Positions 29,293 through 62,285 of a stretch of 64,000 nt of DNA are shown here, in pieces. Both the position numbers and the translations under genes were made by a program. The notes under the pieces were generated by a model. The model searched no databases, was not told where the DNA came from, and worked only from the letters and a program-made list of their open reading frames with translations. The stretch lies in assembly GCA_017444825.1 (NCBI GenBank), contig JAFSVU010000020.1, positions 4,374 through 68,373 of the forward strand, given 5' to 3'. Each line of letters begins with the position of its first letter. The stretch's first letter is position 1. Source of the stretch: Clostridia bacterium (lineage in GTDB: Bacteria; Bacillota; Clostridia; UBA1212).

Positions 29293-29551
29293 TATATTTA
29301 CCGCCTTTACTTACAAATAATGATTTCACCGACCGGTTTTTTCGCGACGGAACGTCACGTATTTGAGCCGGGTCGCATAAAACGCAAATCATATTATACT
29401 ATCTTGATTAAAAGAATTCAACGGAAAAATTTTCCGCATTTAAGGCGGTCTTAAGGTGCCGGATCCGTGCGAAACCCGGCATTTTAAGGTTGAAGGCGGC
29501 GGCTCAAAAATGGTAAAATTTCATATCATAAGACACGGGGAGGATGTTCAT

Positions 29552-32053
29552 ATGCAAAATCCTTTTACAAAAGCGATACCCCTGGTTTCAGGCGAGCCCG
29601 GCGACCTGTCCGTCGTGAACGTTTACACGGATTTCTTTGAAGAGTTCACAGCGGATGCCCCTCGGGAGGAAACCAATGTCATTCTCAAGATCAATGCCGA
29701 CAGCGAGTTTGCGGTATGGATAAACGGCAGATTTGCCCTGACCGGCCAGCATTCCCAGTTTCCCGACACCCCCTGCGCTGAGTTTGCCGACATCACGGAA
29801 CTCATCCGGGAAGGCGCCAATACCATTGCCGTGACGGTATACCGCCAGGGTCTCACCACTTCCACCTACATAAGCGGCCCCGGCCAGTTTCTCTACGAGA
29901 TCGCCCTCCTCTCTCCGGACGGCGAAGAAGTTATCGCCGCATCCTCCGAAAACACTCTCAGACGGTTTTCACCGTCGTACAAAAGCGGGCCCGTGCCCCA
30001 GGTCTCCGGACAGCTTGGTTTTTCTTTTGCATACACTCATTCACCGGGCTGTGACGATTTTCTCGGGGCAAGCTACACCGAAGAGGTTGCCAGAGAGGAC
30101 GGTTTTACGAATGCCGTCGTTCTCCGGGATTTTGAGCCTGCGGATTTCACGACGAGGAACATCAAAAACCTTGGTATCTTAAGCGCCGGGACCTCCGAGC
30201 TGGTCGCCCAGGGACTTTTCGACTACGGGCTTGAGTACCGTGAGACCAATTCCATGCCCCACGGCAGCTATATGCAAAACGCCGCGCTCCGCTCAAGATA
30301 CCTTCATCAGCTTCTTGACGACCCCGTGACGACAAGGGAGATACCCGCGGTACAAAACTACGCTCTCGAGCCCTCCGCAGAGCTTCCCGAAGTCAAAAAC
30401 CCGATCAGACTTGTAACAAAAGAGCTCACCCTCACAGGCGCTCTCCGGGAGGGCCGGGGCATATACGCGGTGATAGACATTGGTGCCGAGACCCTTGGTT
30501 ATTTATCCTTCAGAGTCACTACGAAGCGTCCCACGGTCATTGGCGTGGCCTATTCAGACCACCTGATCGACCTCAGGGCCAGGAGCTACGTCGGAGGCAG
30601 GCATTTTGCGGAAACAGTCATCGTTCCTGCGGGGGAGACGGCCCACACCCACCTTCTCAGCAAGATCGGTGCGAGATATATCATGCTCTACGCGGAAACG
30701 GACGACATCACCATCTCCGGAGTCGGGATCATTCCCACAGTCTATCCGGTGGACGGGTACGCCCGGGGCGATTTTGCGGTCAACGACGACCTGCATAAAA
30801 AGATCTATTCCACCTGCCTCAGCACACTTCTTCTTTGCATGAACGAGCACTACATGGATTGCCCCCAGCGTGAGCAGGCACTCTATGCGATGGACAGCAG
30901 AAACCAGATGCTCTGCGGCTACTACGCTTTTGGCGAGTATGCATACGCCAAGGAAAGTCTGTCGCTCCTGTCGAGATCTCTCAGGCCAGACGGCCTCCTG
31001 GAGCTCTGTGCGCCGGCAAAGGTTCCGATCACTATTCCGTCATTTTCACTTCACTGGGTCATCGCCCTCTGCGAGTACACGAAATTCAGCGGCGACACAG
31101 CCTTCTTCTACGAACAGCTTAAGACCGCAAACACCATAATGAGTTCGATCCTCACCTGCCGCGGCGAAAACGGAGCCCTTCTCCGGCGCACCGAGAAGGA
31201 ATACTGGAACTTCCATGAGTGGAACGGCGAGCTTTCGGGTTCCATCGGCAGTCCATCCACCTCCGACGCGGACGGCTGCCTAACGGCACTGTTCATAATC
31301 GCAACTGATAAACTTGCCGAGATCATCGAGGAAACAGGTGGCGAGGACGAAAGCGCCGCTTCTCAGGTCAGAAAGCTCCGGGCCCTCTCGACGTCGATGC
31401 GCGCGGTGTTCAACGACACTTTCTTCGACCCGGAAAACGAGGTCTACTGTTCCTACAAAGACATGTCGGCCGAAACCAATGGGCTCCGCAACCACAGCGA
31501 GTACATGAACGCATTGGCAATACTCTCGGGAGCTGCCTCCCTTGACGAGAACTGCCTTGCAGCCGCAGTAAAAGCGATCACCCGCAAGGCCGAAAAGGTC
31601 GAGATAAGCCCCTGCACTCTCAGCACCTGCCTCTTCAAGTACGATGCGCTGATGTCGGTTTCGAGAGAATATATCGACTTCGTGATGGAGGAGATAACCG
31701 AGCTCTGGGGCTACATGATAAGCCGAGGAGCCACGTCTTTCTGGGAGACTATCAAAGGGGCCGAGGACTTTGACGATGCAGGCTCTCTTTGCCACGGCTG
31801 GGCCGCGATCCCGGTGGCGGTGTATTACAGATACATTCTGGGAATTGAGCCCTTAAAGTGCGGCTTCGAGAAATATTCGGTGAGCCCCGCATTCTGGGAC
31901 AGACATCACGCAAAGGGCAGTATCTTCCTGCCGGCAAAGTCGATGAAGCTGGAGGTCACGGTGGACGACAAGTCGTTTTTCTTTGACGAAAAAGTGCCTG
32001 CGGAAGGGAGTGCCGCCTTAAGTTATAGGGGTGCCGCCCAAGGTAATAGGTAA
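29552..32053 (+). CDS. Six-hairpin glycosidase, GH78 alpha-L-rhamnosidase-like
   Basis: MDCPQREQALYAMD and C-terminal CHGWAAIPV resemble GH78 signatures. GGGGAGGA RBS 8 nt before ATG 29552. An extended -10 TGgTAAAAT at 29510-29518 argues against the 29510 and 29456 starts. The C-terminus runs into repeat locus D. Confidence 0.55.
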   Translation: MQNPFTKAIPLVSGEPGDLSVVNVYTDFFEEFTADAPREETNVILKINADSEFAVWINGRFALTGQHSQFPDTPCAEFADITELIREGANTIAVTVYRQGLTTSTYISGPGQFLYEIALLSPDGEEVIAASSENTLRRFSPSYKSGPVPQVSGQLGFSFAYTHSPGCDDFLGASYTEEVAREDGFTNAVVLRDFEPADFTTRNIKNLGILSAGTSELVAQGLFDYGLEYRETNSMPHGSYMQNAALRSRYLHQLLDDPVTTREIPAVQNYALEPSAELPEVKNPIRLVTKELTLTGALREGRGIYAVIDIGAETLGYLSFRVTTKRPTVIGVAYSDHLIDLRARSYVGGRHFAETVIVPAGETAHTHLLSKIGARYIMLYAETDDITISGVGIIPTVYPVDGYARGDFAVNDDLHKKIYSTCLSTLLLCMNEHYMDCPQREQALYAMDSRNQMLCGYYAFGEYAYAKESLSLLSRSLRPDGLLELCAPAKVPITIPSFSLHWVIALCEYTKFSGDTAFFYEQLKTANTIMSSILTCRGENGALLRRTEKEYWNFHEWNGELSGSIGSPSTSDADGCLTALFIIATDKLAEIIEETGGEDESAASQVRKLRALSTSMRAVFNDTFFDPENEVYCSYKDMSAETNGLRNHSEYMNALAILSGAASLDENCLAAAVKAITRKAEKVEISPCTLSTCLFKYDALMSVSREYIDFVMEEITELWGYMISRGATSFWETIKGAEDFDDAGSLCHGWAAIPVAVYYRYILGIEPLKCGFEKYSVSPAFWDRHHAKGSIFLPAKSMKLEVTVDDKSFFFDEKVPAEGSAALSYRGAAQGNR

Positions 32054-36163: not shown

Positions 36164-37378
36164 TTATCTTTTGTTCGTTTTTTTCACCTTGGAACTCATC
36201 TGAGCCGTTCTCTTCTCCGCAGCACCGTCGTCTCCCGGCGGCAGCTGTGTCTCCAGATAATTGACCAGCATAAAACCAATGCTTATCCTCACTCCGTCCT
36301 CAAACCTGGTACAGTCAAGGCCCGTGAGCTTGTTGAATTTTTCAATGCGGTAGTTAAGAGTGTTTCTGTGGACGAAAAGCGCCTTGGCGGTCTCCGTGAC
36401 GTTCTGGTTGAGCTTCAGATACATCTTGATGGTAAGAAGCAGCTCGTCATCGCTCTCGGAACGGTTCTCACTGTCCTGCACTCTCAGGCAGTTTTCAAAA
36501 AATGTGTTTCCGAACACCTCTCTCAGGTAGCTCTCGCACACGTCCCTCTTCTGACCGTAAAGGATCCTGGCGACGCCAAGGTTATCGTAGGAATAAACGA
36601 CGCTGTCAATATCAAACGCCTCTCCTATCGCCAATGCCCTCTCCGCCGTTTTGTACGCCGCGTCAATGTTCCGGAGCAGCTTTACCCTGCAGCCCACCGA
36701 GACGTTTATGTCGATGGCAAGCTCGGTCCTCACGGTGTCGATAACGGACTCCGCCGCCTCAAGAGCATTTTCAAACTGCATGTCCTCCGAAAGAGGCACG
36801 ATGACCGCGCAGGCGTCCGATCTTATTCTCACGGTGACGAAACCGTCGCTCTCCGGGAAAGCGTATTCAAGAAGAGAAGTCACCTCGGTCATCCGGTCAA
36901 CTTCTCTGTCGTCCTGCTTTTTCTTTCTGGCGAGGGTCACAAGGAGCGCGGTGTATTCCTGGGCAGGCACGTTTTTCTTAGTGTTTACCGTAAAATCGCC
37001 CTGTGTCACCGAGTCCTTTCCTCCCAGCAGCAGCTGACGGAAAAACTCATTTCTTCTGGAAAAGCTGGCGGTGACGTTTTCGGTATAGAACAAAGATGCT
37101 ATCTTCAGTGCCTTCGCAGCACCGTCCTTTGCGTCCTGTCCGCCCTCCGGAACGTCGCAGAAAAACCAGAGTTCCCTGCCCTCGCAGGTTATCTGGCAGA
37201 ACATCCTGCCGCCGGAAGTCACGATGTCGCCGTCCTCGTCCGGCAGTTCGTAAGTTTCTTCCGAAACAGGGTACAGCACCCGGCCCGAGCTGTCGCAAAC
37301 GCCGAAGCCCCGGCCCATCGTCTCCGCTATTTTTTCGATAAAACCAATGTCATCGATCTTGCCCGGTTCAATACTCAT
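36164..37378 (-). CDS. PucR/CdaR-family transcriptional regulator
   Basis: C-terminal HTH TAKALFVHRNTLNYRIEKFNKLTGLD is typical of the PucR C-terminal domain. Confidence 0.65.
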   Translation of the reverse strand: MSIEPGKIDDIGFIEKIAETMGRGFGVCDSSGRVLYPVSEETYELPDEDGDIVTSGGRMFCQITCEGRELWFFCDVPEGGQDAKDGAAKALKIASLFYTENVTASFSRRNEFFRQLLLGGKDSVTQGDFTVNTKKNVPAQEYTALLVTLARKKKQDDREVDRMTEVTSLLEYAFPESDGFVTVRIRSDACAVIVPLSEDMQFENALEAAESVIDTVRTELAIDINVSVGCRVKLLRNIDAAYKTAERALAIGEAFDIDSVVYSYDNLGVARILYGQKRDVCESYLREVFGNTFFENCLRVQDSENRSESDDELLLTIKMYLKLNQNVTETAKALFVHRNTLNYRIEKFNKLTGLDCTRFEDGVRISIGFMLVNYLETQLPPGDDGAAEKRTAQMSSKVKKTNKR

Positions 37379-39225
37379 CCTGCGTACCTGAAGCTGAGCG
37401 CCCCGATGGGGAAGCTCCTTCCCGACACATAGTAGTCCATAATGTCGTTTTCGACCTCTATGCCGTCAGCGATCTTAAAATAGAAACTGTCTGTGCCGAT
37501 AACTGTTTTCGGCACTTTCACAAGCATAACGTTACCTGTCACGTTGTATCCCGCAAGTCCCGCGTCCGCGACGGAAAAATCCGCAGAAAGCTTTTCGACA
37601 CTGAGGGTGTTTCCGTTTTCGCGCCTTCCGATCACATATTCGTAGCCCTCCCAGCCTTTTTTCTCAAGCTTTCCGGTGCCGATGAATATGTTCATCCAGG
37701 ACGTTTCGCCATTCTCTCTGAGAACCAACGTGTCCTCCGTTTGGATCCTGAAGTAGTAATTGTCACTGTCCTCGCATATCCTCACTTCGTTTATGAAGTT
37801 TCTGGCGGCGGGGGCGGTGTATTTGACGGAGGATGCTCCTCCCGCGCTGTTTCTGGCTTTGTTTACGACCATTGCGGTGCCGAATACCGCATGGACACTG
37901 TTCCACTCGCTGCTGTCGGAGGATATATCCATGGTGATCATGTCCGTCTTTACTCTCGCATTACCCAGCGGAACGTTCTTGTAAGCCCTGATGTTGGCGG
38001 CCAGCTGGATGTAAAAATTGTCCATATGTCCGCCCTTCATAGGCTCCGCATCTCTGGAGAACTCGGTGTTGCACTGATCCACCATCGCATAGCCGTCACC
38101 GTATTCAATTCTTCCCGCGGTCCATTCGTTCCAGCCCGTCACGAATACGATGGCCGGATCCGCCTTTAGCGCCACGTCCCAGGTGGACTGGAAAAACTGC
38201 CCTTCGGCGGCCTTGTCGCTTTCATTTTTCAAAGTTTTCACGTTCCAGCCTCTGCCCCAGTTGTCGGCTCCTTCAGTCACCGAAAGGGACATGGGAAGGC
38301 AGGGATGGGCCGATACCGCGACGTTTATGACGCCGTTATGGACCGGAGCCGGATAAGTGAATTCTATCCAGGGAAATCCGTTCTCACGGAACTCCTCCGT
38401 GGGCCACTGGCATTCTCTGAAGTAAAAATAGTTTTCGATCTCATCGCCAAAGGGTTCCGGGCTGTAATTCAGGTCGCCCCTGCCTCTTGCCTCGGAAAGA
38501 TCGTCATCCATATCGATGCGGCCTATGATCAGCGGCTTCCCGTCGATTCTGTACCACGCAGAGTCATATTTGCCCTGCTTGTAGAACTTGTCGTAAAGGT
38601 CCCTGATCACCGTGTGGGTGTAGGATGCGGTGTAGAACACCAGTTCCGGGCAATCCTCCCGGCCCGCCTCCTTCAGTTTTTTGACCTCTGCCGCAATTTT
38701 GGCGGCCACTATGTCGTAGGTGACTGCATTGGTCACGTCAAAGACCAGAAAGTCCACGCCCGCGGCGCCCAGCATTTCAAGATGCCTGCGTATCACCCAG
38801 CTGTCCGAGGAATTGTAGTACCCGAAAAGGGGCTCTCCCCAGTAGTAAGCCGGGTTCCCCGGAAACTTGTAGCTTTTGTCAAGGAACATTTTTTCGAGGC
38901 CGCCCTCCTCTTCGAGGAGTTCGGACACGTTTACCACCGATGTGCTTCCGTGCTGGCCCGAGCAGAGGAAATAGAATATTCCCACATCACGGGATTTGTC
39001 GTTTTTCTCACCCCGGGTCGCCTCGAAAGTTCTCCCGAGACGGTCCATGCCTATGACCGGATTCGAGTTTTTTCCGCCGGCGTAGTATTCCGATGCTTCT
39101 ATATATGTCACCGTATTCTCCTCCGGCCCGTCGTTTACGTTACGCGAGCAGCCCGCAAAACCGATGCATCCCGCAGTCAGGACCATCGTCAGCGCCAAAA
39201 CCGCAAAGCCTCGGACCCTTTTCAT
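37375..39225 (-). CDS. Lipoprotein, putative TIM-barrel glycosidase (possibly GH99/GH71-like; family uncertain)
   Basis: MKRVRGFAVLALTMVLTAGC lipobox. YYWGEPLFGYYNSSDSWVIRRHLEMLGAAGVDFLVFD and TGWNEWTAG resemble endo-mannosidase-like folds (from memory only). Confidence 0.5.
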   Translation of the reverse strand: MKRVRGFAVLALTMVLTAGCIGFAGCSRNVNDGPEENTVTYIEASEYYAGGKNSNPVIGMDRLGRTFEATRGEKNDKSRDVGIFYFLCSGQHGSTSVVNVSELLEEEGGLEKMFLDKSYKFPGNPAYYWGEPLFGYYNSSDSWVIRRHLEMLGAAGVDFLVFDVTNAVTYDIVAAKIAAEVKKLKEAGREDCPELVFYTASYTHTVIRDLYDKFYKQGKYDSAWYRIDGKPLIIGRIDMDDDLSEARGRGDLNYSPEPFGDEIENYFYFRECQWPTEEFRENGFPWIEFTYPAPVHNGVINVAVSAHPCLPMSLSVTEGADNWGRGWNVKTLKNESDKAAEGQFFQSTWDVALKADPAIVFVTGWNEWTAGRIEYGDGYAMVDQCNTEFSRDAEPMKGGHMDNFYIQLAANIRAYKNVPLGNARVKTDMITMDISSDSSEWNSVHAVFGTAMVVNKARNSAGGASSVKYTAPAARNFINEVRICEDSDNYYFRIQTEDTLVLRENGETSWMNIFIGTGKLEKKGWEGYEYVIGRRENGNTLSVEKLSADFSVADAGLAGYNVTGNVMLVKVPKTVIGTDSFYFKIADGIEVENDIMDYYVSGRSFPIGALSFRYAG

Positions 39226-39887
39226 TCCGCGGTCTCCGGCTCGTAACCGTAGCATACGAAGTCATATATACTGCAGTAGGGATAGTCGCTGAATTCCTCA
39301 TCCTCCGGGAAATCCACCGTTATCATGATCTTTGTGGCGAAGGTGTCCTTCGGGAACGTGCTCTCATCCAGCAGCATAGTGGGCTTTGTGTAAACGTCGT
39401 AGAACTCGTAGACCTCTTTCCATTCGCTGCCGTCCTCGGTCACAAGTATCTTGTAGTAACCGGTCAAAGTCTCCCAGGTGATGGAAAAGTCGCTGAGTTC
39501 ATATCGTCCCCCGAGATCGATGGTGATCTCATGGTGAAGATCTGTTCTCCAGTTCGGTCTCTGCAGGTCAAATCCGCTCCACCTCGTGGTCTCGTCCTCA
39601 TCCACTATAGCTTTCGGATCTCCGTATTCGCCGCGCTGTGAGTAGTCCGCTTCCACTTCTTTATCGTAGACGACGTTCATAATTTTCCTTGAGGGCGTCG
39701 GTTCGGCCGTAGGCTCGGACGTGAGCTCCGGTGTGGCTTCGGGAGCCTGCGTTTCTTCGACAGGATCTGCCTCGGCAGTAGCTTCGGCAGTGGCCTCTGA
39801 GGGAGTGTTGTTACCGGGGGTTCCGGCGCATGCCGCCAGACAAACCAATGCAATCAAAACCGCAACCGTCACGAAAAATTTCTTCAT
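39222..39887 (-). CDS. Lipoprotein with F5/8 type C (discoidin/CBM32-like) carbohydrate-binding domain
   Basis: MKKFFVTVAVLIALVCLAACAG lipobox. Pro/Glu/Thr/Ala linker. DETTRWSG... discoidin-like core. Confidence 0.55.
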   Translation of the reverse strand: MKKFFVTVAVLIALVCLAACAGTPGNNTPSEATAEATAEADPVEETQAPEATPELTSEPTAEPTPSRKIMNVVYDKEVEADYSQRGEYGDPKAIVDEDETTRWSGFDLQRPNWRTDLHHEITIDLGGRYELSDFSITWETLTGYYKILVTEDGSEWKEVYEFYDVYTKPTMLLDESTFPKDTFATKIMITVDFPEDEEFSDYPYCSIYDFVCYGYEPETAE

Positions 39888-39904: not shown

Positions 39905-39960
39905 TGTTGTTTCAGTATGTAATTTGCACATATCCTTTTTTTGTGCAATCTGCACATATT
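39905..39960. promoter_or_regulatory. Operator-like inverted repeat TTGCACA-N15-TGTGCAA-tc-TGCACA in the divergent promoter region
   Basis: gtaatTTGCACAtatcctttttttGTGCAAtcTGCACAtattc. It lies between the lipoprotein start (39887, minus) and the DUF4091 gene (40066, plus). Confidence 0.3.
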
Positions 39961-40065
39961 CTACAGCTTGACCTCCCTTTTTTCAAGTATAATCATTGCG
40001 CCGAAGAGCCTTATCTGTTAAAATAAAAAACAATTCAAATACACTTCTCCGAAGGAGACCAGGTC

Positions 40066-41709
40066 ATGTTTTACAGAATCGTTTCTTCTCTCGACAAATG
40101 CTTTCCGGATATGAAAGCCGGGGATTTCAAGGAGCTCACCTCCTTTTCGATGCTTCGGAACGAGCGGTATTCTTTTCAGCTCTGTTACGACTCGGAGCCC
40201 GGCACAAATCTTGCATCCGCTCCCACGGAGATATTCATAGAATCACCCTTAAGCGAATACATAAAGCTTTACAAAGTGCGGTGCGTCCCTTCGGAGCACC
40301 CCGTTTCCGCCGGTTTCTACGACGAAAACTACGAGCGCATTAAACCGGGCCTCTTTCCGGACGTGCTGGAACCGATGTCTCCCGGCGAGCGGATCTTAAA
40401 GAGCGACTCTCTCAACGCCATCTGGTTTGAAGTCGACCCCTGCGGCAAAGCCGCGCCGGGAACGTACCCGATCACGGTAAAGCTTCTTTCCCCCGGAAAG
40501 GAAGAGCGGGTCTCCGTAAGCTGTGAGATCATTGGCGCATCTCTTCCGGATACGGATTTTATTTTCACCCAGTGGTTCCACGTGGACTGCCTGAAGGATT
40601 ATTACCTCACCGGGGACTACGACGACAGGCTATGGAAGATCATTGGCGATTTTGCCGCAAACGCAGCGAGATACGGCCAGAATATGATCCTCACGCCGGT
40701 CCTCTCGCCCGAGCTTGACACGTTTCCGTCCATTTACAGGACCAACGTGCAGCTGGCAAAAATAAAGGCGGATAACGGGGTCTACAGCTTCGATTTTTCA
40801 CGCCTCGGGAAGTGGATCGCCCTTTGCGAAGAAAAAGGTATCAAATATTTTGAGATCAACCACCTCTTCTCCCAGTGGGGCGCCGCGAAATGTCCTCAGG
40901 TCTGGGCTGTCAAAGACGGGGTGTATCAGAGAATCTTCGGCTGGGAAAACGATGCGGACAGCGAGGAGTACATTGGTTTTTTGAAGCAGTTCCTGCCTGC
41001 CCTCGTAAGATACCTTAAGAGAAAAAAGGTGCTTGACAGGTGCTTTTTCCACATATCCGACGAGCCGAATATCACCATGCTTGAGCACTACGGTAGGCTC
41101 GCATCCGTCGTAAAGCCTCTTCTCTCCGGAAGACCCGTGATGGACGCCCTGTCCGATTACGATTTTTACGAGAAGGGTATCTGCGACATTCCGATACCGT
41201 CGAACGATCACATTGGTCCGTTTATCGAGCACAAGGTGCCGGGCCTTTGGACGTATTACTGCTGCGGTCAGTGGAAGGACGTTTCCAACAGGTATTTTTC
41301 TATGCCCTCCGCCAGAAACCGTGCCATTGGCGTCCAGTTCTGGAAGTTCAACATCAAGGGATTTTTGCAGTGGGGGTATAACTTCTACAATTCCTTCCTT
41401 TCGTTTACAAAGATCAATCCGTTCCTCACCACAGACGGCGACGGCTTCGTGCCCTCGGGAGATACCTGTTCCGTGTACCCGGGCCGTGAGGAGACTCCCC
41501 TCCCTTCCCTCCGCGAAGTTGTGTTTTTCGACGCTCTTCAGGACATGAGGGCCCTATACCTGCTGGAGAGCTTCATCGGGAAAGACGCCGCGCTGGCCAT
41601 TGTGGAGAACGGTATCGAGCCCGTCTTATTCAACAGATTCCCGTATAGCAGAGATTTCGTTCTGGGCCTTAGAGAAAGGATCAACGCCGAAATCAAAAAA
41701 CATATTTGA
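40066..41709 (+). CDS. DUF4091-like putative glycoside hydrolase (GH123-like, DE catalytic pair in HISDEP)
   Basis: 547 aa, no signal peptide. FHISDEPN contains an Asp-Glu pair like the GH123/GH20 retaining hexosaminidase catalytic dyad. Assignment from memory of family signatures. Confidence 0.5.
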   Translation: MFYRIVSSLDKCFPDMKAGDFKELTSFSMLRNERYSFQLCYDSEPGTNLASAPTEIFIESPLSEYIKLYKVRCVPSEHPVSAGFYDENYERIKPGLFPDVLEPMSPGERILKSDSLNAIWFEVDPCGKAAPGTYPITVKLLSPGKEERVSVSCEIIGASLPDTDFIFTQWFHVDCLKDYYLTGDYDDRLWKIIGDFAANAARYGQNMILTPVLSPELDTFPSIYRTNVQLAKIKADNGVYSFDFSRLGKWIALCEEKGIKYFEINHLFSQWGAAKCPQVWAVKDGVYQRIFGWENDADSEEYIGFLKQFLPALVRYLKRKKVLDRCFFHISDEPNITMLEHYGRLASVVKPLLSGRPVMDALSDYDFYEKGICDIPIPSNDHIGPFIEHKVPGLWTYYCCGQWKDVSNRYFSMPSARNRAIGVQFWKFNIKGFLQWGYNFYNSFLSFTKINPFLTTDGDGFVPSGDTCSVYPGREETPLPSLREVVFFDALQDMRALYLLESFIGKDAALAIVENGIEPVLFNRFPYSRDFVLGLRERINAEIKKHI

Positions 41710-41722
41710 AGGAGATAAACCA

Positions 41723-43579
41723 ATGTCACCGTTCCAGTTTAAAACCGACGATCTGTCAGTATCATACGACCCCGAGACCCTTTCTCTGACCGCCGCCTCC
41801 GGCGGAGAGACCTGGAGGACCAAACCGGGCTCCGAAACTTATATCGTATCCCGAAAATTCGGGAACATTCCCTTCGCCTCCGCAAAATGCGAAGCCTCAG
41901 CTTACAAAACAGGCACCGTTTCGGGGGTAAAGGCGGTCTACACCTTCGAGGAGAGCGGCATCACGGCCGTCACCTACGTATTTGCCGAAGGATATGACGA
42001 CACACTCCACTGCGAATTTTTCCTGAAGGGAGACATTTCCTCCGACGTAAGGGCCGTCTACTGGCCTGCGCCCCTTGAGTTTAACGCGGACGACGGCTGC
42101 ACCGTACTTCCCAAGATGCAGGGAGTCCTTCTTCCCGCAAAGTGGGACGGGAAGGTTCCGAACTTTCAGAACTGGCAGATGCTGTCGAGAGATTTTTACA
42201 TGCCATTTGCCGGCCAGGTCAGAAACGGCTCCGGCTGCATGATGATATTTGAGACACCCTGGGACGCAAACTGCTTCGTGGACCACATCCCCGGAGGCGA
42301 CACCACACTGGTTCCCTACTGGAGACCGTCTCTCGGCCACTACTCGGCGCATGACAAGAGAAAGCTCAGCTACCGCTTCCCGAAAAATGCCGATTACAAT
42401 CTTTTTGCGAAAATTTACAGAAAATACGTGTGCGAGCACGGCGATTTTGTAACGCTCCGCCAGAAGGCAGAAACCAATCCCAACGTATCCTACATGACGG
42501 GTACGCCGGTCTACATTGACGGCATATGCACCATGATACACCCGGACTCGGAAGCCTACGACAAGGCCCACCCCGAAAGAAACACCCACGTGTGCAGGTT
42601 CGAGACCGTTGGCGAAAGGCTCGACATGCTGAAAAAGGAAGGCTTTGAGAAGATCTACCTCCATCTGGACGGATGGGGAAAGATGGGCTACGACAGGCTC
42701 CACCCGGACGTATTCCCGCCCTGCCCCGAGGCCGGCGGCGCTGAAGGCATGAAGGACCTTAGCGACAGGTGCAGAGAGCTGGGCTACAGGTTCGGTATCC
42801 ACGACCAGTTCAGGGATTACTATTTCGAGGCGGAGACGTTTGACATGGACAACGTGGCGGTGGACGAGGCCGGCGGCTATGAGTGCTACAACGTGTGGTG
42901 CGGCGGTCCCCAGACCTTTATGTGCCCCGAGCTCAGTCCCCAGTACGTCCGCAGGAACTACGCCACCTTCGACAGCCTCGGCATAGGCATCGACGGCACG
43001 TACCTTGACGTGTTCTCGGTGGTAGATCTTGACGAGTGCTTTAACGAGAAACATACGGTGACAAGAAAAGACTGTGTAAAATACCGCAGAGAGTGCTATG
43101 ATTTTCTGAACAAAAAAGGTATAATCACATCTTCGGAGGAGGCTGTTGACGCAGTTCTTCCCTCGTTTGTGCTCTGCCACCACGCGCCCTTCGCCGTTGA
43201 CGAGCTTTCGTCCTCCACCGGCAAGGCTGTGGGCATTCCGATACCGCTGTTCACGTTGGTTTATCACGAGTGTTTGATCGTGCCCTGGTTCGGCATCGAT
43301 AAAAAAGGCGGCTGGCACATTCCGATCACGGACAGCGGCTACCTCTACGCACTTCTTACGGGCGGCACAGTTTACGTATGGCCGGGCATGACGAAGGAGG
43401 AGCGCAGACGGGCGGATATCGCATTGGCGCTTCAGGCCGAGGTCTGGGACAAGGAGCTTGTCTCCCATGAGTTTATTGACGGAAACCCCCGCAGACAGCG
43501 TTCGACGTTCGCGGGCGGCACTACAGTTACAGTTGATTTTGAAACGGAGGAATTTAGTATAAGCCATGCTTCCAATTGA
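41723..43579 (+). CDS. Cytoplasmic glycoside-hydrolase-like protein, paralog of the 909-aa membrane protein (uncharacterised family)
   Basis: GGAG RBS then ATG 41723 (MSPFQFKTDD...). Motifs LHLDGWGKMGYD, GGAEGMKDL and PLFTLVYHE are shared with CDS 4740-7469. Confidence 0.55.
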   Translation: MSPFQFKTDDLSVSYDPETLSLTAASGGETWRTKPGSETYIVSRKFGNIPFASAKCEASAYKTGTVSGVKAVYTFEESGITAVTYVFAEGYDDTLHCEFFLKGDISSDVRAVYWPAPLEFNADDGCTVLPKMQGVLLPAKWDGKVPNFQNWQMLSRDFYMPFAGQVRNGSGCMMIFETPWDANCFVDHIPGGDTTLVPYWRPSLGHYSAHDKRKLSYRFPKNADYNLFAKIYRKYVCEHGDFVTLRQKAETNPNVSYMTGTPVYIDGICTMIHPDSEAYDKAHPERNTHVCRFETVGERLDMLKKEGFEKIYLHLDGWGKMGYDRLHPDVFPPCPEAGGAEGMKDLSDRCRELGYRFGIHDQFRDYYFEAETFDMDNVAVDEAGGYECYNVWCGGPQTFMCPELSPQYVRRNYATFDSLGIGIDGTYLDVFSVVDLDECFNEKHTVTRKDCVKYRRECYDFLNKKGIITSSEEAVDAVLPSFVLCHHAPFAVDELSSSTGKAVGIPIPLFTLVYHECLIVPWFGIDKKGGWHIPITDSGYLYALLTGGTVYVWPGMTKEERRRADIALALQAEVWDKELVSHEFIDGNPRRQRSTFAGGTTVTVDFETEEFSISHASN

Positions 43580-44693
43580 TGTTATTAAAGGATTTTACAC
43601 TGATATCGAAAACTACGACGCCCTTGATATAACCAAAATCGAGAGCGGCCACATTAACAGGACCTACGAGGTCAAGGACAGGACACTTGCGGGCACGTAC
43701 CGGGGCCACTACATTTTTCAGCGCATCAACACGTCCATCTTCAAGAACCCTGTGGGGCTCATGAACAATATCATGCTGGTGACGGAGCATGCCGCAGCCA
43801 GCGCAATTGCCGCGGGAAAGGATCCGAAGGTATCGACGCTCACGCTCATGAAGTCGGTGCAGGACAAGGTATATTACGTCGACAGCGAGGGGTATTATTG
43901 GCGCTGCTATCTGTTCCTTCCCAATTCCATCAACCTTGACGTGGTGGAGGTCACGCCGGGAACTTACGTTCAGGCCGGCGGCGCATTGGCGGATTTTCAG
44001 AGAATGCTGGCGGATTTCGACGCGTCTCTCCTCTGCGAAGTCATTCCGGGCTTCCACGACACGAGAAACAGGTTCAAAAATCTCAAGAAGGCCATCGAAG
44101 AGAACAGGTCGGGCCGGGCTGCAAACGCCAAGGCGGAGATCGAATATGCCCTTTCCCTTGAAGGTATCACAGGCACTATAGTCGACCGCCTGCGGGACGG
44201 CAGGCTGCCTCTCCGCGTGACCCACAACGACACCAAGCTCAGCAACATCATGATCGACAATGACACCCACGAAGTAATGTGCCTGATCGATCTCGACACT
44301 GTCATGCCGGGCAGCGCCCTTTACGATTTCGGCGACGCTCTCAGGGCTGGGGGCTCCTCTGCAGCGGAGGACGAGGCTGATCTCTCCAAGGTCAACTTCC
44401 TCGAACTCAACTTCGAGAAATATTGCGAGGGCTACATCGGCGGCGCCAAGGACTTCCTCACGGACGAGGAGCTGAGCCTGCTTCCGGAGTCTGCGGCCAT
44501 ACTCACATATGAGTGCGGCATCAGGTTCCTGTCGGATTACCTTGACGGCGACACATATTTCTCCACAAAGTACCCTGAGCACAATCTGGTGAGGGCCAGA
44601 AACCAGTTTAAGCTGGTGAAGGACGTGCTGGGGAATCTGGAGAGGCTGCACGGGATCGTTGAAAAGGTAATGGTTAAAGGAGTGCCGCACTAA
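43566..44693 (+). CDS. nahK: N-acetylhexosamine 1-kinase (NahK/LnpB-like, APH-fold)
   Basis: PLRVTHNDTKLSNIMID, IDLDTVMPGSALYDFGD and YFSTKYPEHNLVRARNQFKLV closely match my recollection of Bifidobacterium NahK. Overlaps the upstream gene by 14 nt. Confidence 0.7.
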   Translation: MLPIDVIKGFYTDIENYDALDITKIESGHINRTYEVKDRTLAGTYRGHYIFQRINTSIFKNPVGLMNNIMLVTEHAAASAIAAGKDPKVSTLTLMKSVQDKVYYVDSEGYYWRCYLFLPNSINLDVVEVTPGTYVQAGGALADFQRMLADFDASLLCEVIPGFHDTRNRFKNLKKAIEENRSGRAANAKAEIEYALSLEGITGTIVDRLRDGRLPLRVTHNDTKLSNIMIDNDTHEVMCLIDLDTVMPGSALYDFGDALRAGGSSAAEDEADLSKVNFLELNFEKYCEGYIGGAKDFLTDEELSLLPESAAILTYECGIRFLSDYLDGDTYFSTKYPEHNLVRARNQFKLVKDVLGNLERLHGIVEKVMVKGVPH

Positions 44694-44832
44694 GTTAAAG
44701 CGGTGCCGGACAAAGTAATAAGTAATAGGTAAAAGGTAAGAAGTAATAGCTTTAGGGAGTGCCGCTCAGGTAATAAGTAATAGGTAATAGGTAAAAGGTA
44801 ATAGGTAAAATTCAGTAAATATAGGTAAAAAG
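44684..44832. repeat. Structured intergenic repeat locus E
   Basis: GGAGTGCCGCactaagTTAAAGCGGTGCCGGACaaaGTAATAAGTAATAGGTAAAAGGTAAGAAG...GGGAGTGCCGCTCAGGTAATAAGTAATAGGTAATAGGTAAAAGGTAATAGGTAAAA. Confidence 0.8.
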
Positions 44833-44845
44833 TAACAGGTGGGAA

Positions 44846-45757
44846 ATGAGCAGGATATTGAATTTCGGGTCGCTGAACGTTGATTACGTTTATCACGTGG
44901 ACCATTTTGTGGCGCCGGGAGAGACCATTGCGTCGACGGCAAGGGACGTAAACTGCGGAGGCAAAGGTCTCAATCAGAGTATCGCATTGGCGGCGTCCGG
45001 AGCGACCGTTATGCACGCCGGAATGATCGGGTCTGACGGTAAAATGCTAACGGACCTTCTCTCTTCCGCGGGCGTCAGCACAGCTCTTGTGGACATCTCG
45101 GACGGTCCCTCGGGGCATGCGATAATTCAGGTCGACAAAAACGGCCAGAACTCCATCATTCTCTTCCCCGGCGCAAACCACGAGATCACCCCCGAAATGA
45201 TAACCTGCGTCTTCAGCCACCTGGAGGAAGGCGACACAGTTGTCCTTCAGAACGAGATCAGCCGCATCCCGGAGATCATGACCTTCGCCAAAACTTCGGG
45301 CATAAGGATCGTTTTCAACCCTTCCCCCGTGACCCCCGAGCTGTTCGACTACCCTCTGGAACTGGTGTCGCTTTTTGTGCTTAATGAGATCGAAGCGGCC
45401 GCCCTCTCGGGAACCGACGACTTTGCGCAAATGCCTGATGCCCTCAGGGAGAGATTCCCGGATGCGGATTTCCTCCTCACCTTCGGCACCCACGGCGCGG
45501 TCTTCATAACCAATGACACCGTCATTAAATACGGCATCCACAAGGCTCCAGTTGTCGACACCACTGCCGCAGGGGACACGATACTCGGTTTCTTCACGGG
45601 ACTTACCGCGGAAGGCATGGAGCCCGAAAAAGCTCTCCGGCTTGCCACAAAAGCCGCATCGGTCACAGTCTCAAGGAAAGGGGCCGCTCCATCGATACCG
45701 ACTTTGGATGAAGCGGAGGCTTGCGATTTCCCGTACGTGCCCTTCGACCTTTTCTGA
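44846..45757 (+). CDS. PfkB-family sugar kinase (ribokinase-like)
   Basis: N-terminal GG motif region VNCGGKGLNQ. DTTAAGD anion-hole motif. Confidence 0.8.
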   Translation: MSRILNFGSLNVDYVYHVDHFVAPGETIASTARDVNCGGKGLNQSIALAASGATVMHAGMIGSDGKMLTDLLSSAGVSTALVDISDGPSGHAIIQVDKNGQNSIILFPGANHEITPEMITCVFSHLEEGDTVVLQNEISRIPEIMTFAKTSGIRIVFNPSPVTPELFDYPLELVSLFVLNEIEAAALSGTDDFAQMPDALRERFPDADFLLTFGTHGAVFITNDTVIKYGIHKAPVVDTTAAGDTILGFFTGLTAEGMEPEKALRLATKAASVTVSRKGAAPSIPTLDEAEACDFPYVPFDLF

Positions 45758-53379: not shown

Positions 53380-55083
53380 TCAGTTCTTTTTCTTTCCGAT
53401 CACGACTCCGATGAGCACGCATATCGCGCAGAGCGCCAGCACTCCCACAACGATAAGGACGATAAACAGCGGATTCAGGTCCGTGCTGTTCCCGTTCGAG
53501 GGCTCTCCGGTTTTCTCAGGTTCAGCGGTCTCTCCGTTCTCCGGTGTCTTTTCTCCGGCATCAGGCTCTTTCGTGGTCCCGTCGGGGGCTTTTGTGGGTT
53601 CCTCACCATCCGGGGTGGGAGTCACCTCCTCCGCTTTTTCAAGCATCACCGAGAATATGAGGTGACCGCCTGAAGTGTAGCCTCTGTCGTCCACGGCGTA
53701 GACCTCATAGTAAAACACCTTTCCGGCGTCCTTCTCGTCAATGGCAGGCAGGTCTATGCTGTAGCCGTTGCCGAGGGGATGGGCCCTGTCCGGAGTTCCG
53801 TCACTGTCGCAGGGGAACCAGTCAACGGAGCACTCCGAAATGTTGTTTTCGAGAACGGCCTCCACCGAGACAGGCTTGCCTGCCTCCTTCACGACTATCG
53901 CCTCACCCTGGGCAACGGACACCTTGATCTGTTCATCATCGCCCTCTATGCCCGAAGGAAGAAGCGTGTAGGGGATGACAGCCGCGCAGGAACGTTTTGC
54001 TCCGTCCGTCTCCTGAACAGTGACCAATACGTATTGATCCATCATCATCTCCCCAGCCGGGATGCCCTTCAGCATGACCGAGTAGCCCTTTCCGAAGGAT
54101 TTGTCGCCGGTCTTCTCGCCAAGAGCATCGCAGTAGAACCACTGGATATTCACCTGGCCATTGGCGTTTTCAACCTCCACCTTGGCGTTGGTCTCCTGAA
54201 GCGCATGGTACGTGTAGAACTGGATCTCTCCGTCTGCGGGCTTGACAGTGAGATTGTTTTCGCCAAGGGTCGGGAAGGTTTTGCAAATAAATCCAACCTT
54301 TTTGGCATCGTCGCCCACAAGCTTTGTTCCCGTGGCGGCGGCTTCATTGTTTATGGTGGCGCCTATCACACCCGCAAGAGTTGATCCGGATTTCGCCATT
54401 ACCTCGATGTAGAATCTGTAGGCACAGCCCTCCTTGAACTTGCTTGACTGGTTCGGATCCAGCGCTGTCCAGGTAAGTCCGCCGTCGGAAGACTCGTCCC
54501 AGCGTGCTCCCGCACCCGCAAGCGAAGCAATTACGTCGGAATATTCGCTTATCTTGAACGAGTATGAAACGTCCTCACCTGCCTTCGGGGTGACCACGTC
54601 GGTGATTCCTACAAAAGACACCAATCCTTCCCACGTGAGAGGTCCGAAATCCTTTGAAACAGTCAGCGTTTTTCCGCTGATGGAGTAATCGGCGGCGGCT
54701 CCGTTGATCTTAACGGTCAGGTTGCCCTCGTCCCATGAACAGTTCTGTTCGGGCTCATACTCCGCCATAAAACGGTAATAATAGTTTTCCTTGAAGAACT
54801 GCCTGCTCCCGTCGCCAAAAGACTCATAGCCCATGGGCATTAATGTGTAATCCTTGCCGTCCTTGGATTCATACCAGCGTCCTCCCGGGCCCGCCGTTAC
54901 GGCTGTAAACTCTGTCTGGTTCACAACAGCCCAATTGTACTCAGGCTCCCATCCGACAACGGGCTCCGTAAGATCTTTTATTTCCACGGTGCTGATGACT
55001 GACCCTGCAAACGCACTCAGTCCGAATGCGCCGACCGCCAGCATAACTGCCAGCAAAGCAGCAAACAACTTAGATATTTTCAT
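53380..55083 (-). CDS. Cell-surface repeat protein with C-terminal Pro/Glu/Thr stalk and TM anchor
   Basis: Start MKISKLFAALLAVMLAVGAFG after GGGAGGA RBS (ATG 55083). Repeated ~120-aa modules (RWYESKDG / RWDESSDGG). C-terminus ...LFIVLIVVGVLALCAICVLIGVVIGKKKN. Confidence 0.55.
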   Translation of the reverse strand: MKISKLFAALLAVMLAVGAFGLSAFAGSVISTVEIKDLTEPVVGWEPEYNWAVVNQTEFTAVTAGPGGRWYESKDGKDYTLMPMGYESFGDGSRQFFKENYYYRFMAEYEPEQNCSWDEGNLTVKINGAAADYSISGKTLTVSKDFGPLTWEGLVSFVGITDVVTPKAGEDVSYSFKISEYSDVIASLAGAGARWDESSDGGLTWTALDPNQSSKFKEGCAYRFYIEVMAKSGSTLAGVIGATINNEAAATGTKLVGDDAKKVGFICKTFPTLGENNLTVKPADGEIQFYTYHALQETNAKVEVENANGQVNIQWFYCDALGEKTGDKSFGKGYSVMLKGIPAGEMMMDQYVLVTVQETDGAKRSCAAVIPYTLLPSGIEGDDEQIKVSVAQGEAIVVKEAGKPVSVEAVLENNISECSVDWFPCDSDGTPDRAHPLGNGYSIDLPAIDEKDAGKVFYYEVYAVDDRGYTSGGHLIFSVMLEKAEEVTPTPDGEEPTKAPDGTTKEPDAGEKTPENGETAEPEKTGEPSNGNSTDLNPLFIVLIVVGVLALCAICVLIGVVIGKKKN

Positions 55084-55264
55084 AATGATCCTCCCAAAAC
55101 CAACAAGACCGGAAGCCTGCCGGTCAATGTCATTGTATCGTGTAAGAGGTGTGTTTTCAAGCAAAACTGCGCTATTTCGGCCGGTGAAGCGCCAAGCGGT
55201 TGATTTTCGGCACCGTTTCGGGTATGATTCCCTGGTCTTTAAGTTTAAGACAGGCGGAGGCATC

Positions 55265-55819
55265 ATGGAAAAAAGTCAGTCAAAAGCAGATCCGGTCACG
55301 ATCGTAAAAGTCGACCGGGTTGAAATAAGGGAAACGACAAAGGCGGATCTTAAGGACGTTCAGAGGCTCTGGGCAGACGGCGACGTCATGAAATTTGTGG
55401 GGTTCCCGGATGGGCTCCGCAACACTGACGAGGAGATGGAGGACTGGTACGGCTGGATCGACGCTGGCAGGCCCCTTATCAACCACTTCTCGGTTTTTGA
55501 GAACGGAGTCTACTCCGGTGAATCGTTTTACGAGATCAGCAGGGAACACGGAAACTATGCAGCTGTTGACATAAAGCTTTTCGGTTTCGCAAGAGGACGG
55601 GGCATCGCCGCAAAAGCGCTGTCCTTCGCCGTCAATGAGGCATTCAGAAACGGTGCGGAAAAGGTCTGGGTGGACCCAAATCCCGAAAACGCCAAAGCCA
55701 TCGCCCTCTACAAGCGCTTGGGCTTTGAAAAAAAGGAAAGGCCATCATTCACGGTTTCAAGCGACTGGGCCCCCTCCTCGGTCTATATGGAGCTTGGCAA
55801 AGAAAAGCATCGCCAATGA
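55265..55819 (+). CDS. GNAT-family N-acetyltransferase
   Basis: GGAGG RBS, ATG 55265. ARGRGIAAKALSFAVNEAF...LYKRLGFE acetyl-CoA binding motif. Confidence 0.75.
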   Translation: MEKSQSKADPVTIVKVDRVEIRETTKADLKDVQRLWADGDVMKFVGFPDGLRNTDEEMEDWYGWIDAGRPLINHFSVFENGVYSGESFYEISREHGNYAAVDIKLFGFARGRGIAAKALSFAVNEAFRNGAEKVWVDPNPENAKAIALYKRLGFEKKERPSFTVSSDWAPSSVYMELGKEKHRQ

Positions 55820-55930: not shown

Positions 55931-56008
55931 GGTGGCTATAGCTCAGTTGGTTAGAGTACCAGGTTGTGGCCCTGGGGGCCGTGGGTTCGAGTCCCACTAG
56001 CCACCCCA
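55931..56008 (+). tRNA. tRNA-His (anticodon GUG) with G-1 and encoded CCA
   Basis: Acceptor stem GTGGCTA/TAGCCAC with extra 5' G paired to C73. Anticodon loop TTGTGGC. T-arm GTGGGTTCGAGTCCCAC. 3' CCCA. Confidence 0.85.
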
Positions 56009-56055
56009 TAGAAAAAGCGAGATGAACTGTGTTTGTCTCGCTTTTTCTATGGGGT
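56009..56055 (+). terminator. Terminator hairpin within a long inverted repeat that includes the tRNA 3' end
   Basis: ctagccaccccatagaaaaagcgaga...tctcgctttttctatggggtggctag is a ~28-bp perfect inverted repeat. The inner stem AAGCGAGA/TCTCGCTT is followed by TTTTC. Confidence 0.6.
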
Positions 56056-56096
56056 GGCTAGTTTGGTGGAGCGAGAATACACTAATAAAGGGGCCC

Positions 56097-56145
56097 CCGA
56101 AAGTGCTTGCACTTTTGGGGAGAAGGAGATGCGAGCGATGCAAAT
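56097..56145 (+). repeat. Hairpin+SD motif copy 1 (CCCCGAAAGTGC-tt-GCACTTTTGGGG-AGAAGGAG)
   Basis: 12-bp stem with one G-U, then AAGGAG and ATG codons. Three copies in the island (copies 1 and 2 by sequence, copy 3 by structure). Confidence 0.6.
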
Positions 56146-56215
56146 GCAGCCTTTCAAGAGGCGATCTTTTGTATTTCTTGGAAGGCGGAATCGGCAGCGC
56201 TCGCAGCGACGCGTA

Positions 56216-56230
56216 CCACTAGCCACCCCA
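56216..56230 (+). repeat. Direct repeat of the tRNA-His 3' end (att-like)
   Basis: CCACTAGCCACCCCA is identical to 55994-56008, and 17 of 18 bases match with the flank included. Confidence 0.6.
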
Positions 56231-56356
56231 AGGTGTTTAGACTACAAATATATGCACACGCAAAATCGGCTTTTTTTGCTTATTTTTGCTATCAAAAGGC
56301 CCAAAATTTTAGTGCGAAATAAAAAGATACAAAAGCCCTTTTTCGAAGGGAACATA

Positions 56357-56405
56357 TAGGGGACCCCGAAAGTGCTCGCACTTTTGGGGAAAAGGAGGCG
56401 CAGAG
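56357..56405 (+). repeat. Hairpin+SD motif copy 2
   Basis: GGGGACCCCGAAAGTGCTCGCACTTTTGGGGAAAAGGAGgcgcagagacgcaaacgaag. Confidence 0.6.
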
Positions 56406-56535
56406 ACGCAAACGAAGTGGTCCAAGCGAATACAATCTTATAATGCTTGAAACACGCAGTCGGCGTCTCTTGCGGTGACGCATTCGTACGCTATTGATCA
56501 AAGTCCCAGGGCTGTTTTTGTTATCAACAAATTCG

Positions 56536-57129
56536 TTACTCTTCGGAATAACTTCTCAAAAAATGATCGAATCCGAAAGACGATATCTTTTCAAGGATTT
56601 CGGAAACCGCCTCGGCAGACGGAGAAAAACCGTCGATGATCCATTTTCTGTAAACAGCGATCCTTCCCGCGACGGCAAATGTGAGGATCATATCGATTTG
56701 CGCAGGCGGAATCGACGTTTTTGAATTCAGAGTTGCCTTTAGCTTCTCCCTGACCGTATAGTTGATTTTTTCAAGAAAATTGATATTCTGATTGGCGAGC
56801 AATATTTTTGAATAAAACCCAATCTCAGACATTATCTCTTCGTTGACTTTTTCTAAAAACTGTTTCCGGCCGTAGATAAAATCGTCAAGATCTGTGTTCT
56901 CAAGAAGAACTTTGAACCTCGACAAAACAATATCCTCTATATCAGCTTCAATGTCTGCAATGGTCTTATAGTGCCGGTAAAAAGTCGTTCTGTTGATATT
57001 GCTTGCCTCGCACAAATCATTTACAGAGATGTAATCGCGATCTCTTTGTGACAGCAATTCCGCATACGCCTTTATGATTTCATCCCTTGTGGCTCTTGCC
57101 CGAGGATCTGAGCAATTCCTGTATAGCAT
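56536..57129 (-). CDS. TetR/AcrR-family transcriptional regulator
   Basis: Start MLYRN after GGGAG RBS. HTH ISVNDLCEASNINRTTFYRHY. Confidence 0.7.
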   Translation of the reverse strand: MLYRNCSDPRARATRDEIIKAYAELLSQRDRDYISVNDLCEASNINRTTFYRHYKTIADIEADIEDIVLSRFKVLLENTDLDDFIYGRKQFLEKVNEEIMSEIGFYSKILLANQNINFLEKINYTVREKLKATLNSKTSIPPAQIDMILTFAVAGRIAVYRKWIIDGFSPSAEAVSEILEKISSFGFDHFLRSYSEE

Positions 57130-59165: not shown

Positions 59166-59291
59166 GAAGTCTATTGACATTGGATATAATCGAAATATCG
59201 TTGGCAATGAAGTGTGAACGCTTGATATGTGGCTTAATTTAGTATATAATTTAGTCACAGCAACACATGCTGATCTTGGAGGTATTTCACT

Positions 59292-62284: not shown

Positions 62285-62285
62285 A

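Follow-up and report, generated by a model that had tools for sequence, protein, structure and literature searches.

In bifidobacteria, the lacto-N-biose/galacto-N-biose (LNB/GNB) pathway comprises a phosphorylase of glycoside hydrolase (GH) family 112 (GLNBP), the N-acetylhexosamine 1-kinase NahK, GalT, GalE and an ATP-binding cassette (ABC) transporter. The alpha-N-acetylgalactosaminidase NagBb and NahK are known as intracellular enzymes in these bacteria: NagBb frees alpha-linked N-acetylgalactosamine (GalNAc) from Tn antigen, NahK phosphorylates N-acetylglucosamine (GlcNAc) and GalNAc, and GalNAc released by NagBb is thought to enter metabolism via NahK (PMC8106489). Here, a NahK homolog was analysed that belongs to a cluster of four plus-strand open reading frames (ORF1 to ORF4, positions 40066-45757) of a Clostridia bacterium. 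The cluster lies in a 64,000-nucleotide stretch of contig JAFSVU010000020.1 (assembly GCA_017444825.1), called the window throughout. It was read, with a probability of roughly 0.7, as a cytoplasmic GalNAc-harvesting operon that joins GalNAc release to an anomeric kinase.

Two further described systems are relevant. The polysaccharide utilisation locus (PUL) BT4240-50 of Bacteroides thetaiotaomicron contains the GalNAc 1-kinase BT4240, a GH109 alpha-N-acetylgalactosaminidase and a GH2 enzyme, and no GH112 (PMC11992087). Sumida et al. 2024 described the Group 4 enzymes of the DUF4091 family, NgaP2, NgaLy, NgaBl and NgaBf, with the Protein Data Bank (PDB) entries 8K2L, 8K2M and 8K2N (PMC11087588). 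In vitro, these enzymes are strict monosaccharide-releasing exo-beta-N-acetylgalactosaminidases; an Asp-Glu (DE) motif serves substrate-assisted catalysis in DUF4091/GH123 enzymes, and the natural substrates of Group 4 were not established in that study (PMC11087588).

The cluster in the window resembles the B. thetaiotaomicron PUL, in which an exo-acting N-acetylgalactosaminidase frees GalNAc for a cytoplasmic, NahK-like O1 kinase and GH112 is likewise missing (PMC11992087). The hydrolase families differ, being GH109 and GH2 there and GH129 and DUF4091/GH123 here. Moreover, the B. thetaiotaomicron hydrolases are non-cytoplasmic enzymes of a SusC/D PUL, whereas both hydrolases of the window have no signal peptide, and the PUL has no ribokinase, unlike the window cluster. 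With bifidobacteria, the cluster shares the NahK homolog (ORF3) and a NagBb homolog (ORF2). In contrast to the bifidobacterial pathway, GH112, GalT and GalE are missing from the 64 kb and no transporter is adjacent, the GH129 gene and nahK physically overlap, and the host belongs to the Clostridia.

Enzymes of the cluster

ORF1 (40066..41709, plus strand, 547 amino acids, no signal peptide) is predicted to be a Group 4 exo-beta-N-acetylgalactosaminidase of the DUF4091/GH123 type. The complete GH123_cat profile of Pfam (PF13320, positions 1-324 of 324) matched with an E-value of 5.1e-94 and 315.7 bits against a cutoff of 23.1, and ORF1 aligned end to end with 8K2L (9.9e-132, 443 bits) and 8K2N (1.8e-95, 324 bits), both deposited as 'monosaccharide-releasing beta-N-acetylgalactosaminidase'. 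These matches bear out the DUF4091/GH123-like assignment that had been made from the letters alone. By bit score, ORF1 is nearer to Group 4 than to the oligosaccharide/monosaccharide-releasing enzymes 8K2J (106 bits) and 8K2H (38 bits). The DE motif is intact, with D332-E333 in FFHISDEPN aligned to FFHVSDEPG of 8K2L; the HISDEP Asp-Glu pair pointed out earlier was thus found at residues 329-334. In this end-to-end alignment and in the retained DE motif, ORF1 is like the enzymes of Sumida et al.

ORF2 (41723..43579, plus strand, 618 amino acids, no signal peptide) is, by its homology, a full-length GH129 enzyme with predicted alpha-N-acetylgalactosaminidase activity of the NagBb type. The mechanical reading frame opens at TTG 41600; the best start is ATG 41723, which follows AGGAG and is also annotated on an identical public contig (L001). 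The window is identical in sequence to the metagenome scaffold ENA ERZ28653813 (sample SAMN15829945). NagBb of Bifidobacterium bifidum (PDB 5WZN) aligned at 3.5e-121 and 409 bits over query residues 5-614 of 618 and chain residues 3-629 of 640, whereas the GH101 enzyme EngBF reached only 1.5e-6 across about 120 residues. Pfam reported solely DUF5696 and a weak GH101 match. ORF2 residues D429, E472 and W392 aligned with D435, E478 and W398 of NagBb, the founding GH129 alpha-N-acetylgalactosaminidase. D435 and E478 are its catalytic Asp and Glu. Trp398 is the residue that stacks on GalNAc (PMC8106489). The original prediction had taken ORF2 for a GH-like paralog of ORF1; this was ruled out (BLASTP E 0.11), the two belonging to unrelated families. 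The relation of ORF2 to the other DUF5696 protein of the window is marginal (E 0.028). With ORF2 assigned to GH129, the cluster is more specifically directed at GalNAc than had been proposed.

ORF3 (43566..44693, plus strand, 375 amino acids) is, as judged from its alignments, a NahK-type kinase and is predicted to phosphorylate GalNAc or GlcNAc at O1. Residues 24-369 matched the Bifidobacterium longum NahK structures 4OCU, 4WH1 and 4OCJ at 1e-88, and these were its only PDB matches at E<=0.001. The motifs RVTHNDTKL, IDLDTVMPGS and KYPEHNLVR, on which the first assignment to NahK had relied, are present and aligned with the same motifs of B. longum NahK. D222 (HNDTK) and D242 (IDLDT) aligned with NahK D208 and D228 and were invariant in 22 homologs; in NahK, the former Asp is catalytic and the latter binds Mg. 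An aminoglycoside or choline kinase, the identity that would have spoken against the assignment, was ruled out for ORF3 by these PDB matches and by the NCBIfam model for APH(3''), which scored 18.5 bits, far below its cutoff of 325.

The start of ORF1 and the stop of ORF4 coincide exactly with the bounds 40066 and 45757 that had been given for the cluster. ORF1 and ORF2 are separated by 13 nt, within which AGGAG lies, and ORF3 overlaps the stop of ORF2 by 14 nt. This compactness, a 13-nt gap with a ribosome-binding site followed by a 14-nt overlap, favours reading the hydrolases and the kinase as one operon. By inspection, no N-terminal signal sequence was found in ORF1 to ORF4.

NahK contexts in other Clostridia

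The absence of GH112 near NahK, noted beforehand, was borne out by Pfam within the large ORFs of the 64-kb window, none of which matched GH112, GalT, GalE or a nucleotidyltransferase. The method detected GH112 where the gene was present, as in locus L051. Inside the cluster, no disaccharide ABC transporter, GalT or GalE was found, and the ABC systems of the window lie 25 kb away. An LNB/GNB cluster with adjacent GH112 and with GalT, GalE and a disaccharide ABC transporter is therefore not what the window contains.

The surroundings of NahK were compared in a scan with a NahK alignment, for which one genome per species was used and 80 loci (L007-L086; 43-50% identity) were kept. Neighbouring genes were clustered and representatives checked against Pfam; the full-flank subset comprised the 41 loci flanked by 5 kb or more on each side. 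GH112 lay within 7 kb of NahK in 11 of these 41 loci, and the other 30 were without it. A missing GH112 is thus not unusual for NahK, and GH112 is a minority context in the Clostridia sampled; the original prediction had regarded NahK without GH112 as a departure from the norm, which does not hold. An NTP_transferase gene stood immediately upstream of NahK in 11/41 full-flank loci and directly upstream in 19/80 loci overall, where it was the commonest direct neighbour, which suggests the usual downstream step. A GalE-like epimerase neighboured NahK in 6/41 full-flank loci. No HPH(G/C)Q active-site motif, the sole test used for GalT, was found among NahK neighbours.

Between the end of this NTP_transferase gene (about 310 amino acids) and nahK lie 42 to 157 nt, and a gene for a GalE-like epimerase often follows downstream (for instance L062, 8105-9058, and L051 and L065). 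In the sample, this NTP_transferase-NahK(-epimerase) module, which leads from N-acetylhexosamine (HexNAc) to UDP-HexNAc, was as frequent as the GH112 context. Its logic is analogous to AmgK/MurU anomeric-kinase salvage. Such clostridial modules (L048, L051 and L065, among others) are like the window cluster in that an anomeric HexNAc kinase feeds the nucleotide-sugar pool; in contrast to them, the window cluster has no nucleotidyltransferase or epimerase and carries a ribokinase instead. Fusions of NahK with a NagB-like domain (P0243) and with a PglD_N domain (P0248) were also observed.

One locus bears directly on the hydrolases. In a metagenome-assembled genome (MAG) of a distant member of the Clostridia (L048, 6270-11017), genes for a GH123 enzyme, an NAD-dependent epimerase, an NTP_transferase and NahK form a tight operon with gaps of 17, 30 and 3 nt; NahK is 49% and GH123 42.5% identical to the proteins of the window. 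On homology, L048 is predicted to encode a complete route from a beta-GalNAc glycoside to UDP-GlcNAc (UDP-HexNAc). It supports, independently, a functional link between GH123 and NahK, and it suggests the likely form of the downstream steps that are missing from the window cluster. The text and neighbourhood tables of the Group 4 paper contain no NahK or anomeric kinase (PMC11087588), whereas ORF1 and the GH123 of L048 are operon-linked to NahK. A literature search found no paper that mentions both GH123 and N-acetylhexosamine 1-kinase.

These data also bear on whether the cluster represents a modified LNB/GNB pathway, with hydrolases in place of the GH112 phosphorylase as an unusual departure from the canonical NahK context. 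The orthology of ORF3 to bifidobacterial NahK and the lack of GH112, GalT and GalE from the window would fit such a variant, as would the bifidobacterial precedent of the GH129 enzyme NagBb feeding GalNAc to NahK (PMC8106489). However, GH112 is near only 11 of the 41 full-flank clostridial NahK genes, the neighbours show no GalT motif, NTP_transferase is the commonest direct neighbour and the cluster has no ABC transporter for disaccharides. The hydrolases would thus have nothing to 'replace', and we consider this explanation quite improbable.

Conservation in close relatives

The gene order GH123-(GH129)-NahK-PfkB was found again in nine related contigs from metagenomes or MAGs, at 50-87% protein identity. 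All nine share the flanking genes GtrA, type III glutamine synthetase (GlnN) and SbcCD, and all cluster genes were intact in every copy, so that no pseudogenes were present. GH129 stood between GH123 and NahK in six of them (L087, L088, L095, L096, L097 and L098). In the five of these with a whole nahK gene, NahK was 65-87% identical to ORF3; L098 ends inside nahK. Three relatives were without GH129, namely L003 (of which L004 and L005 are near-identical copies) and L089, and their NahK identity was 59%. Since GH129 occurs in only part of the relatives, GH123-NahK-PfkB represents the conserved core and GH129 a lineage-specific addition. A metagenome scan for ORF2-type GH129 genes with two exact peptide patterns, by which distant GH129 genes would be missed, returned three loci, all with the same cluster. 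Judging from record names only, the window and the related contigs are probably of ruminant gut origin.

Conservation of the neighbourhood could reflect plain descent, because the unrelated flanks GtrA, GlnN and SbcCD are equally syntenic. In that case the genes would be neighbours by descent only, with ORF3 a general HexNAc salvage kinase, for instance in cell-wall recycling, and the glycosidases independent of it. The narrow distribution of the cluster fits this explanation, and so do the very varied contexts of NahK homologs, which also stand alone (L006) or fused to NagB or PglD_N domains. It is nevertheless very improbable, given the 14-nt overlap of ORF2 and ORF3 on the same strand as ORF1, the independent L048 operon, which argues for a real link, and the prediction that both hydrolases would free exactly the sugar on which NahK acts.

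The ribokinase-family gene

ORF4 (44846..45757, plus strand, 303 amino acids) encodes a sugar kinase of the PfkB/ribokinase subfamily, in agreement with the earlier assignment. Pfam PfkB matched at 2.2e-38, and all best PDB matches were ribokinases (6ZNX, 1.3e-41). ORF4 stays below the ribokinase equivalog cutoffs (TIGR02152, 218.9 versus 299.65 bits; NF008353, 165.2 versus 341) and is 32% identical to Escherichia coli RbsK, the reference sequence of which was verified as PDB 1GQT. Its residues N11, D13, G38, G39, K40 and N43 aligned with RbsK N14, D16, G41, G42, K43 and N46, and A92, I94, I104, E137 and D244 aligned with A98, I100, I110, E143 and D255. ORF4 therewith keeps the catalytic Asp and all ribose-contact residues of RbsK. 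The most likely reading of ORF4 is that of a true D-ribose kinase transcribed together with the cluster, its link to GalNAc being putative.

In the window, a spacer of 152 nt separates ORF3 from ORF4, which are therefore not translationally coupled. Most of this spacer consists of 7-nt tandem repeats in two runs (AAGTAAT x5.1 and AGGTAAT x5.9; 44713..44808, Tandem Repeats Finder), and a 21-nt duplication at 44673-44716 takes in the last ORF3 codons, so that the repetitive part extends over 44673-44808. Among the copies of the cluster, NahK-PfkB spacers range from 7 to 152 nt, the window having the longest owing to the 7-nt repeats; those of the relatives (7 to 125 nt) are of unrelated sequence and do not contain these repeats. 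The spacer may be a recent microsatellite-like expansion. No terminator-like site was found in it, and no known RNA or riboswitch of the Rfam type was found in the leader, the spacer or the cluster.

On one short contig (L099, 1-2034; protein P0009), NahK and PfkB are fused seamlessly and in frame, without a start codon at the junction; the NahK part is 64% identical to ORF3 and is joined to an ORF4-like ribokinase. When P0009 was searched with HMMER against 1.84 billion representative proteins, the best 150 matches contained no other NahK-PfkB fusion. Recurrent fusion was thus rejected, and the single case on a 2-kb contig, though in frame and seamless, counts as weak evidence. A general linkage of ORF4-like kinases to NahK was also rejected: the 80 NahK loci from other species contained none, and in Oscillospiraceae, homologs with about 54% identity are found by themselves next to hydrogenase-maturation genes. 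No paper functionally linking NahK and ribokinase was found in a literature search.

The position of ORF4 raises the alternative that GH123, NahK and PfkB form a module for a beta-GalNAc-ribose or ribose-like glycoside, with one kinase for each product, or that ORF4 has a new specificity, for a GalNAc-derived intermediate. We regard this as unlikely, and equally so that a microbial glycopolymer or metabolite would be the source of such a glycoside. ORF4-like kinases of at least 61% identity always follow NahK directly, with gaps down to 7 and 24 nt, and the minimal cluster (L003, L089) consists of one hydrolase and two kinases; the fusion and the retained ribose contacts point the same way. 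Against the module stand the solitary nature of the fusion, the separate Oscillospiraceae homologs, the silence of the literature and the adjacency of NahK and ORF4, which is no better kept than that of the unrelated GlnN and SbcCD. We also know of no natural beta-GalNAc-ribose substrate. A functional partnership of ORF4 with NahK, in which either the trio would catabolise a hitherto undescribed beta-GalNAc-ribose (or related furanose) glycoside or ORF4, by a new specificity, would provide a carbon route from GalNAc independent of GalT and GalE, is rated as unlikely; if true, the partnership would be the only surprising element of the cluster.

Proposed pathway

In the GalNAc-harvesting operon as we infer it, small GalNAc-terminated glycans or glycopeptides would be imported by a transporter encoded elsewhere. 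In the cytoplasm, ORF1 would remove non-reducing beta-GalNAc and ORF2 would remove alpha-GalNAc, for example from GalNAc-alpha-Ser/Thr. ORF3 would then phosphorylate the freed GalNAc (or GlcNAc) at O1, yielding HexNAc-1-phosphate. This product could pass to a nucleotidyltransferase and a 4-epimerase encoded elsewhere, or to GalT and GalE, and flux would run towards UDP-HexNAc for the cell wall or catabolism, or towards GlcNAc-6-phosphate for catabolism.

Besides the compact gene arrangement, this reading draws on the full-length family matches of ORF1 to ORF3, on their retained catalytic and ligand-binding residues and on the gene order recurring in the nine relatives. The independent operon of L048 and the precedent of B. 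thetaiotaomicron BT4240-50 (PMC11992087) add to it. The HexNAc salvage function first proposed for the locus stood in so far as a NahK-centred GalNAc/HexNAc salvage is concerned; the 'paralog' label and the significance given to the missing GH112 fell.

Several observations weigh against the reading. An adjacent transporter is missing from the window, and so is any enzyme consuming HexNAc-1-phosphate, which leaves both ends of the pathway open. Among the 80 NahK loci of other species, GH123 occurred at one and GH129 and an ORF4-like kinase at none. The exact cluster occurs in a single narrow lineage only, where GtrA, GlnN and SbcCD are just as syntenic. Nor is it evident where a ribokinase would fit into GalNAc metabolism. 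Finally, NagBb was the sole solved or characterised GH129 homolog found, and specificities are extrapolated from homologs.

Divergent operon and intergenic repeats

A PucR regulator and two lipoproteins had been noted just upstream of the cluster. They are present on the minus strand as a divergent three-gene operon, in which each junction is a 4-nt ATGA overlap. The first gene (39222..39887, minus strand) encodes a lipoprotein of 221 amino acids with an F5/8 type C domain similar to carbohydrate-binding module (CBM) family 32 (Pfam F5_F8_type_C, 3.4e-11) and the lipobox LAAC in its N-terminus; the gene is kept beside the cluster in L088.

The second gene (37375..39225, minus strand) encodes a lipoprotein of 616 amino acids, for which Pfam, AlphaFold2 and Foldseek indicated a GH99/GH71-like triosephosphate isomerase (TIM) barrel and a C-terminal CBM9-like domain. 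The Pfam GH99 score of 31.8 bits is under the cutoff of 33. The AlphaFold2 model (mean predicted local distance difference test score 82.8) had the GH99 structure 4ACZ as its best Foldseek match in the PDB (E 2.5e-6; template modelling score 0.47, target-normalised), and CBM9 was also matched. The protein has NEWTAG in place of the GH99 motif NEWHE, with the first Glu (E367) invariant and the second absent, and a W-N-E-W motif is invariant in its family. A GH99 enzyme was therefore rejected, the likeness being at fold level only with one catalytic Glu missing, and the earlier label 'putative GH' holds at that level only, because the resemblance to GH99/GH71 is distant and one Glu of NEWHE is lost. 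About 1,966 homologs were found, all unnamed and from Clostridia. They are not consistently near NahK or GH123, one lying beside GH3 and F5/8C genes (L093) and another beside a GDSL lipase gene (L094). These proteins may form a glycoside hydrolase family that is not yet characterised.

The third gene (36164..37378, minus strand) encodes a transcription regulator of the PucR/CdaR family (Pfam HTH_30, 1.1e-17; GGDEF_2, 1.3e-6); the start of this gene and the stop of the 616-amino-acid lipoprotein gene share 4 nt. NCBIfam scores for CdaR and AdeR were far under their cutoffs.

Between the two operons, a repeat search found a 19-nt direct repeat, TGTAATTTGCACATATCCT / TGCAATCTGCACATATTCT, with a spacing of 26 nt (39918..39962). 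Its copies at 39918-36 and 39944-62 are identical at 16/19 positions. The operator-like inverted repeat proposed earlier does exist, as the perfect 7-bp pair TTGCACA/TGTGCAA at 39924-30 and 39942-48 inside the direct-repeat region; about 0.3 such inverted repeats are expected by chance per 180 bp (an estimate), and the direct repeat is statistically the stronger feature. The direct repeat is located just upstream of a plus-strand promoter-like site (39968-39996), overlaps the -10 element of a minus-strand promoter-like site (39986-39958) and is unique to 39918-39962 within the window. It was not found upstream of the ORF1 homologs in the relatives L088 and L095. Given its single occurrence in the window and its absence from these upstream regions, it is a candidate regulator site only. 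Within the proposed pathway, the divergent operon may supply extracellular capture or cleavage of glycans and, through PucR and the 19-nt repeats, local regulation.

Other features of the window

A large ABC-transporter cluster occupies 1385-14911 on the minus strand and encodes a solute-binding protein of 529 amino acids, three permeases and a protein with an SBP_bac_8 domain that is unusually long (1141 amino acids). It surrounds genes for a full-length DUF5696 protein of 909 amino acids (4740-7469) and an NHL-repeat/Yip1 membrane protein of 709 amino acids (7462-9591). The Pfam family DUF5696 gives weak coverage of GH129/GH101-like enzymes, so that this region may be another, uncharacterised glycan-utilisation locus. 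Further genes for glycan degradation, at 19700-21811 and 29456-32053, encode proteins similar to GH36 (Melibiase) and to alpha-L-rhamnosidase (Bac_rhamnosid6H). For the ORFs of 560-660 amino acids at 15725-17719, 27604-29292 and 53380-55266, Pfam gave no match at an E-value of 1e-4.

Right after a tRNA gene (55932-56005), the GC content drops from about 53% to about 41% (window positions 55932-64000). Genes for a TetR regulator, an AAA_21 (AbiEii-like) ATPase and a DUF6273 protein lie in the low-GC segment, which resembles an island that was acquired horizontally and integrated at the tRNA gene, possibly with a defence function.

Implications

The cluster combines known enzyme families in a new way for a pathway of a known kind, and its design has precedents. 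For NahK, the comparison means that the enzyme should not be taken to indicate the GH112 LNB/GNB pathway, because most sampled clostridial nahK genes have other neighbours, frequently a nucleotidyltransferase. The Group 4 DUF4091 beta-N-acetylgalactosaminidases, the natural substrates of which were left open in print, are placed in cytoplasmic GalNAc salvage by their linkage to NahK in the window and in L048. GH129 has been described mainly from bifidobacteria, and its overlap with nahK in uncultured Clostridia adds another phylum to the NagBb-to-NahK route. The four genes also offer a compact system in which the use of mucin-core or other GalNAc glycosides by Clostridia could be tested.

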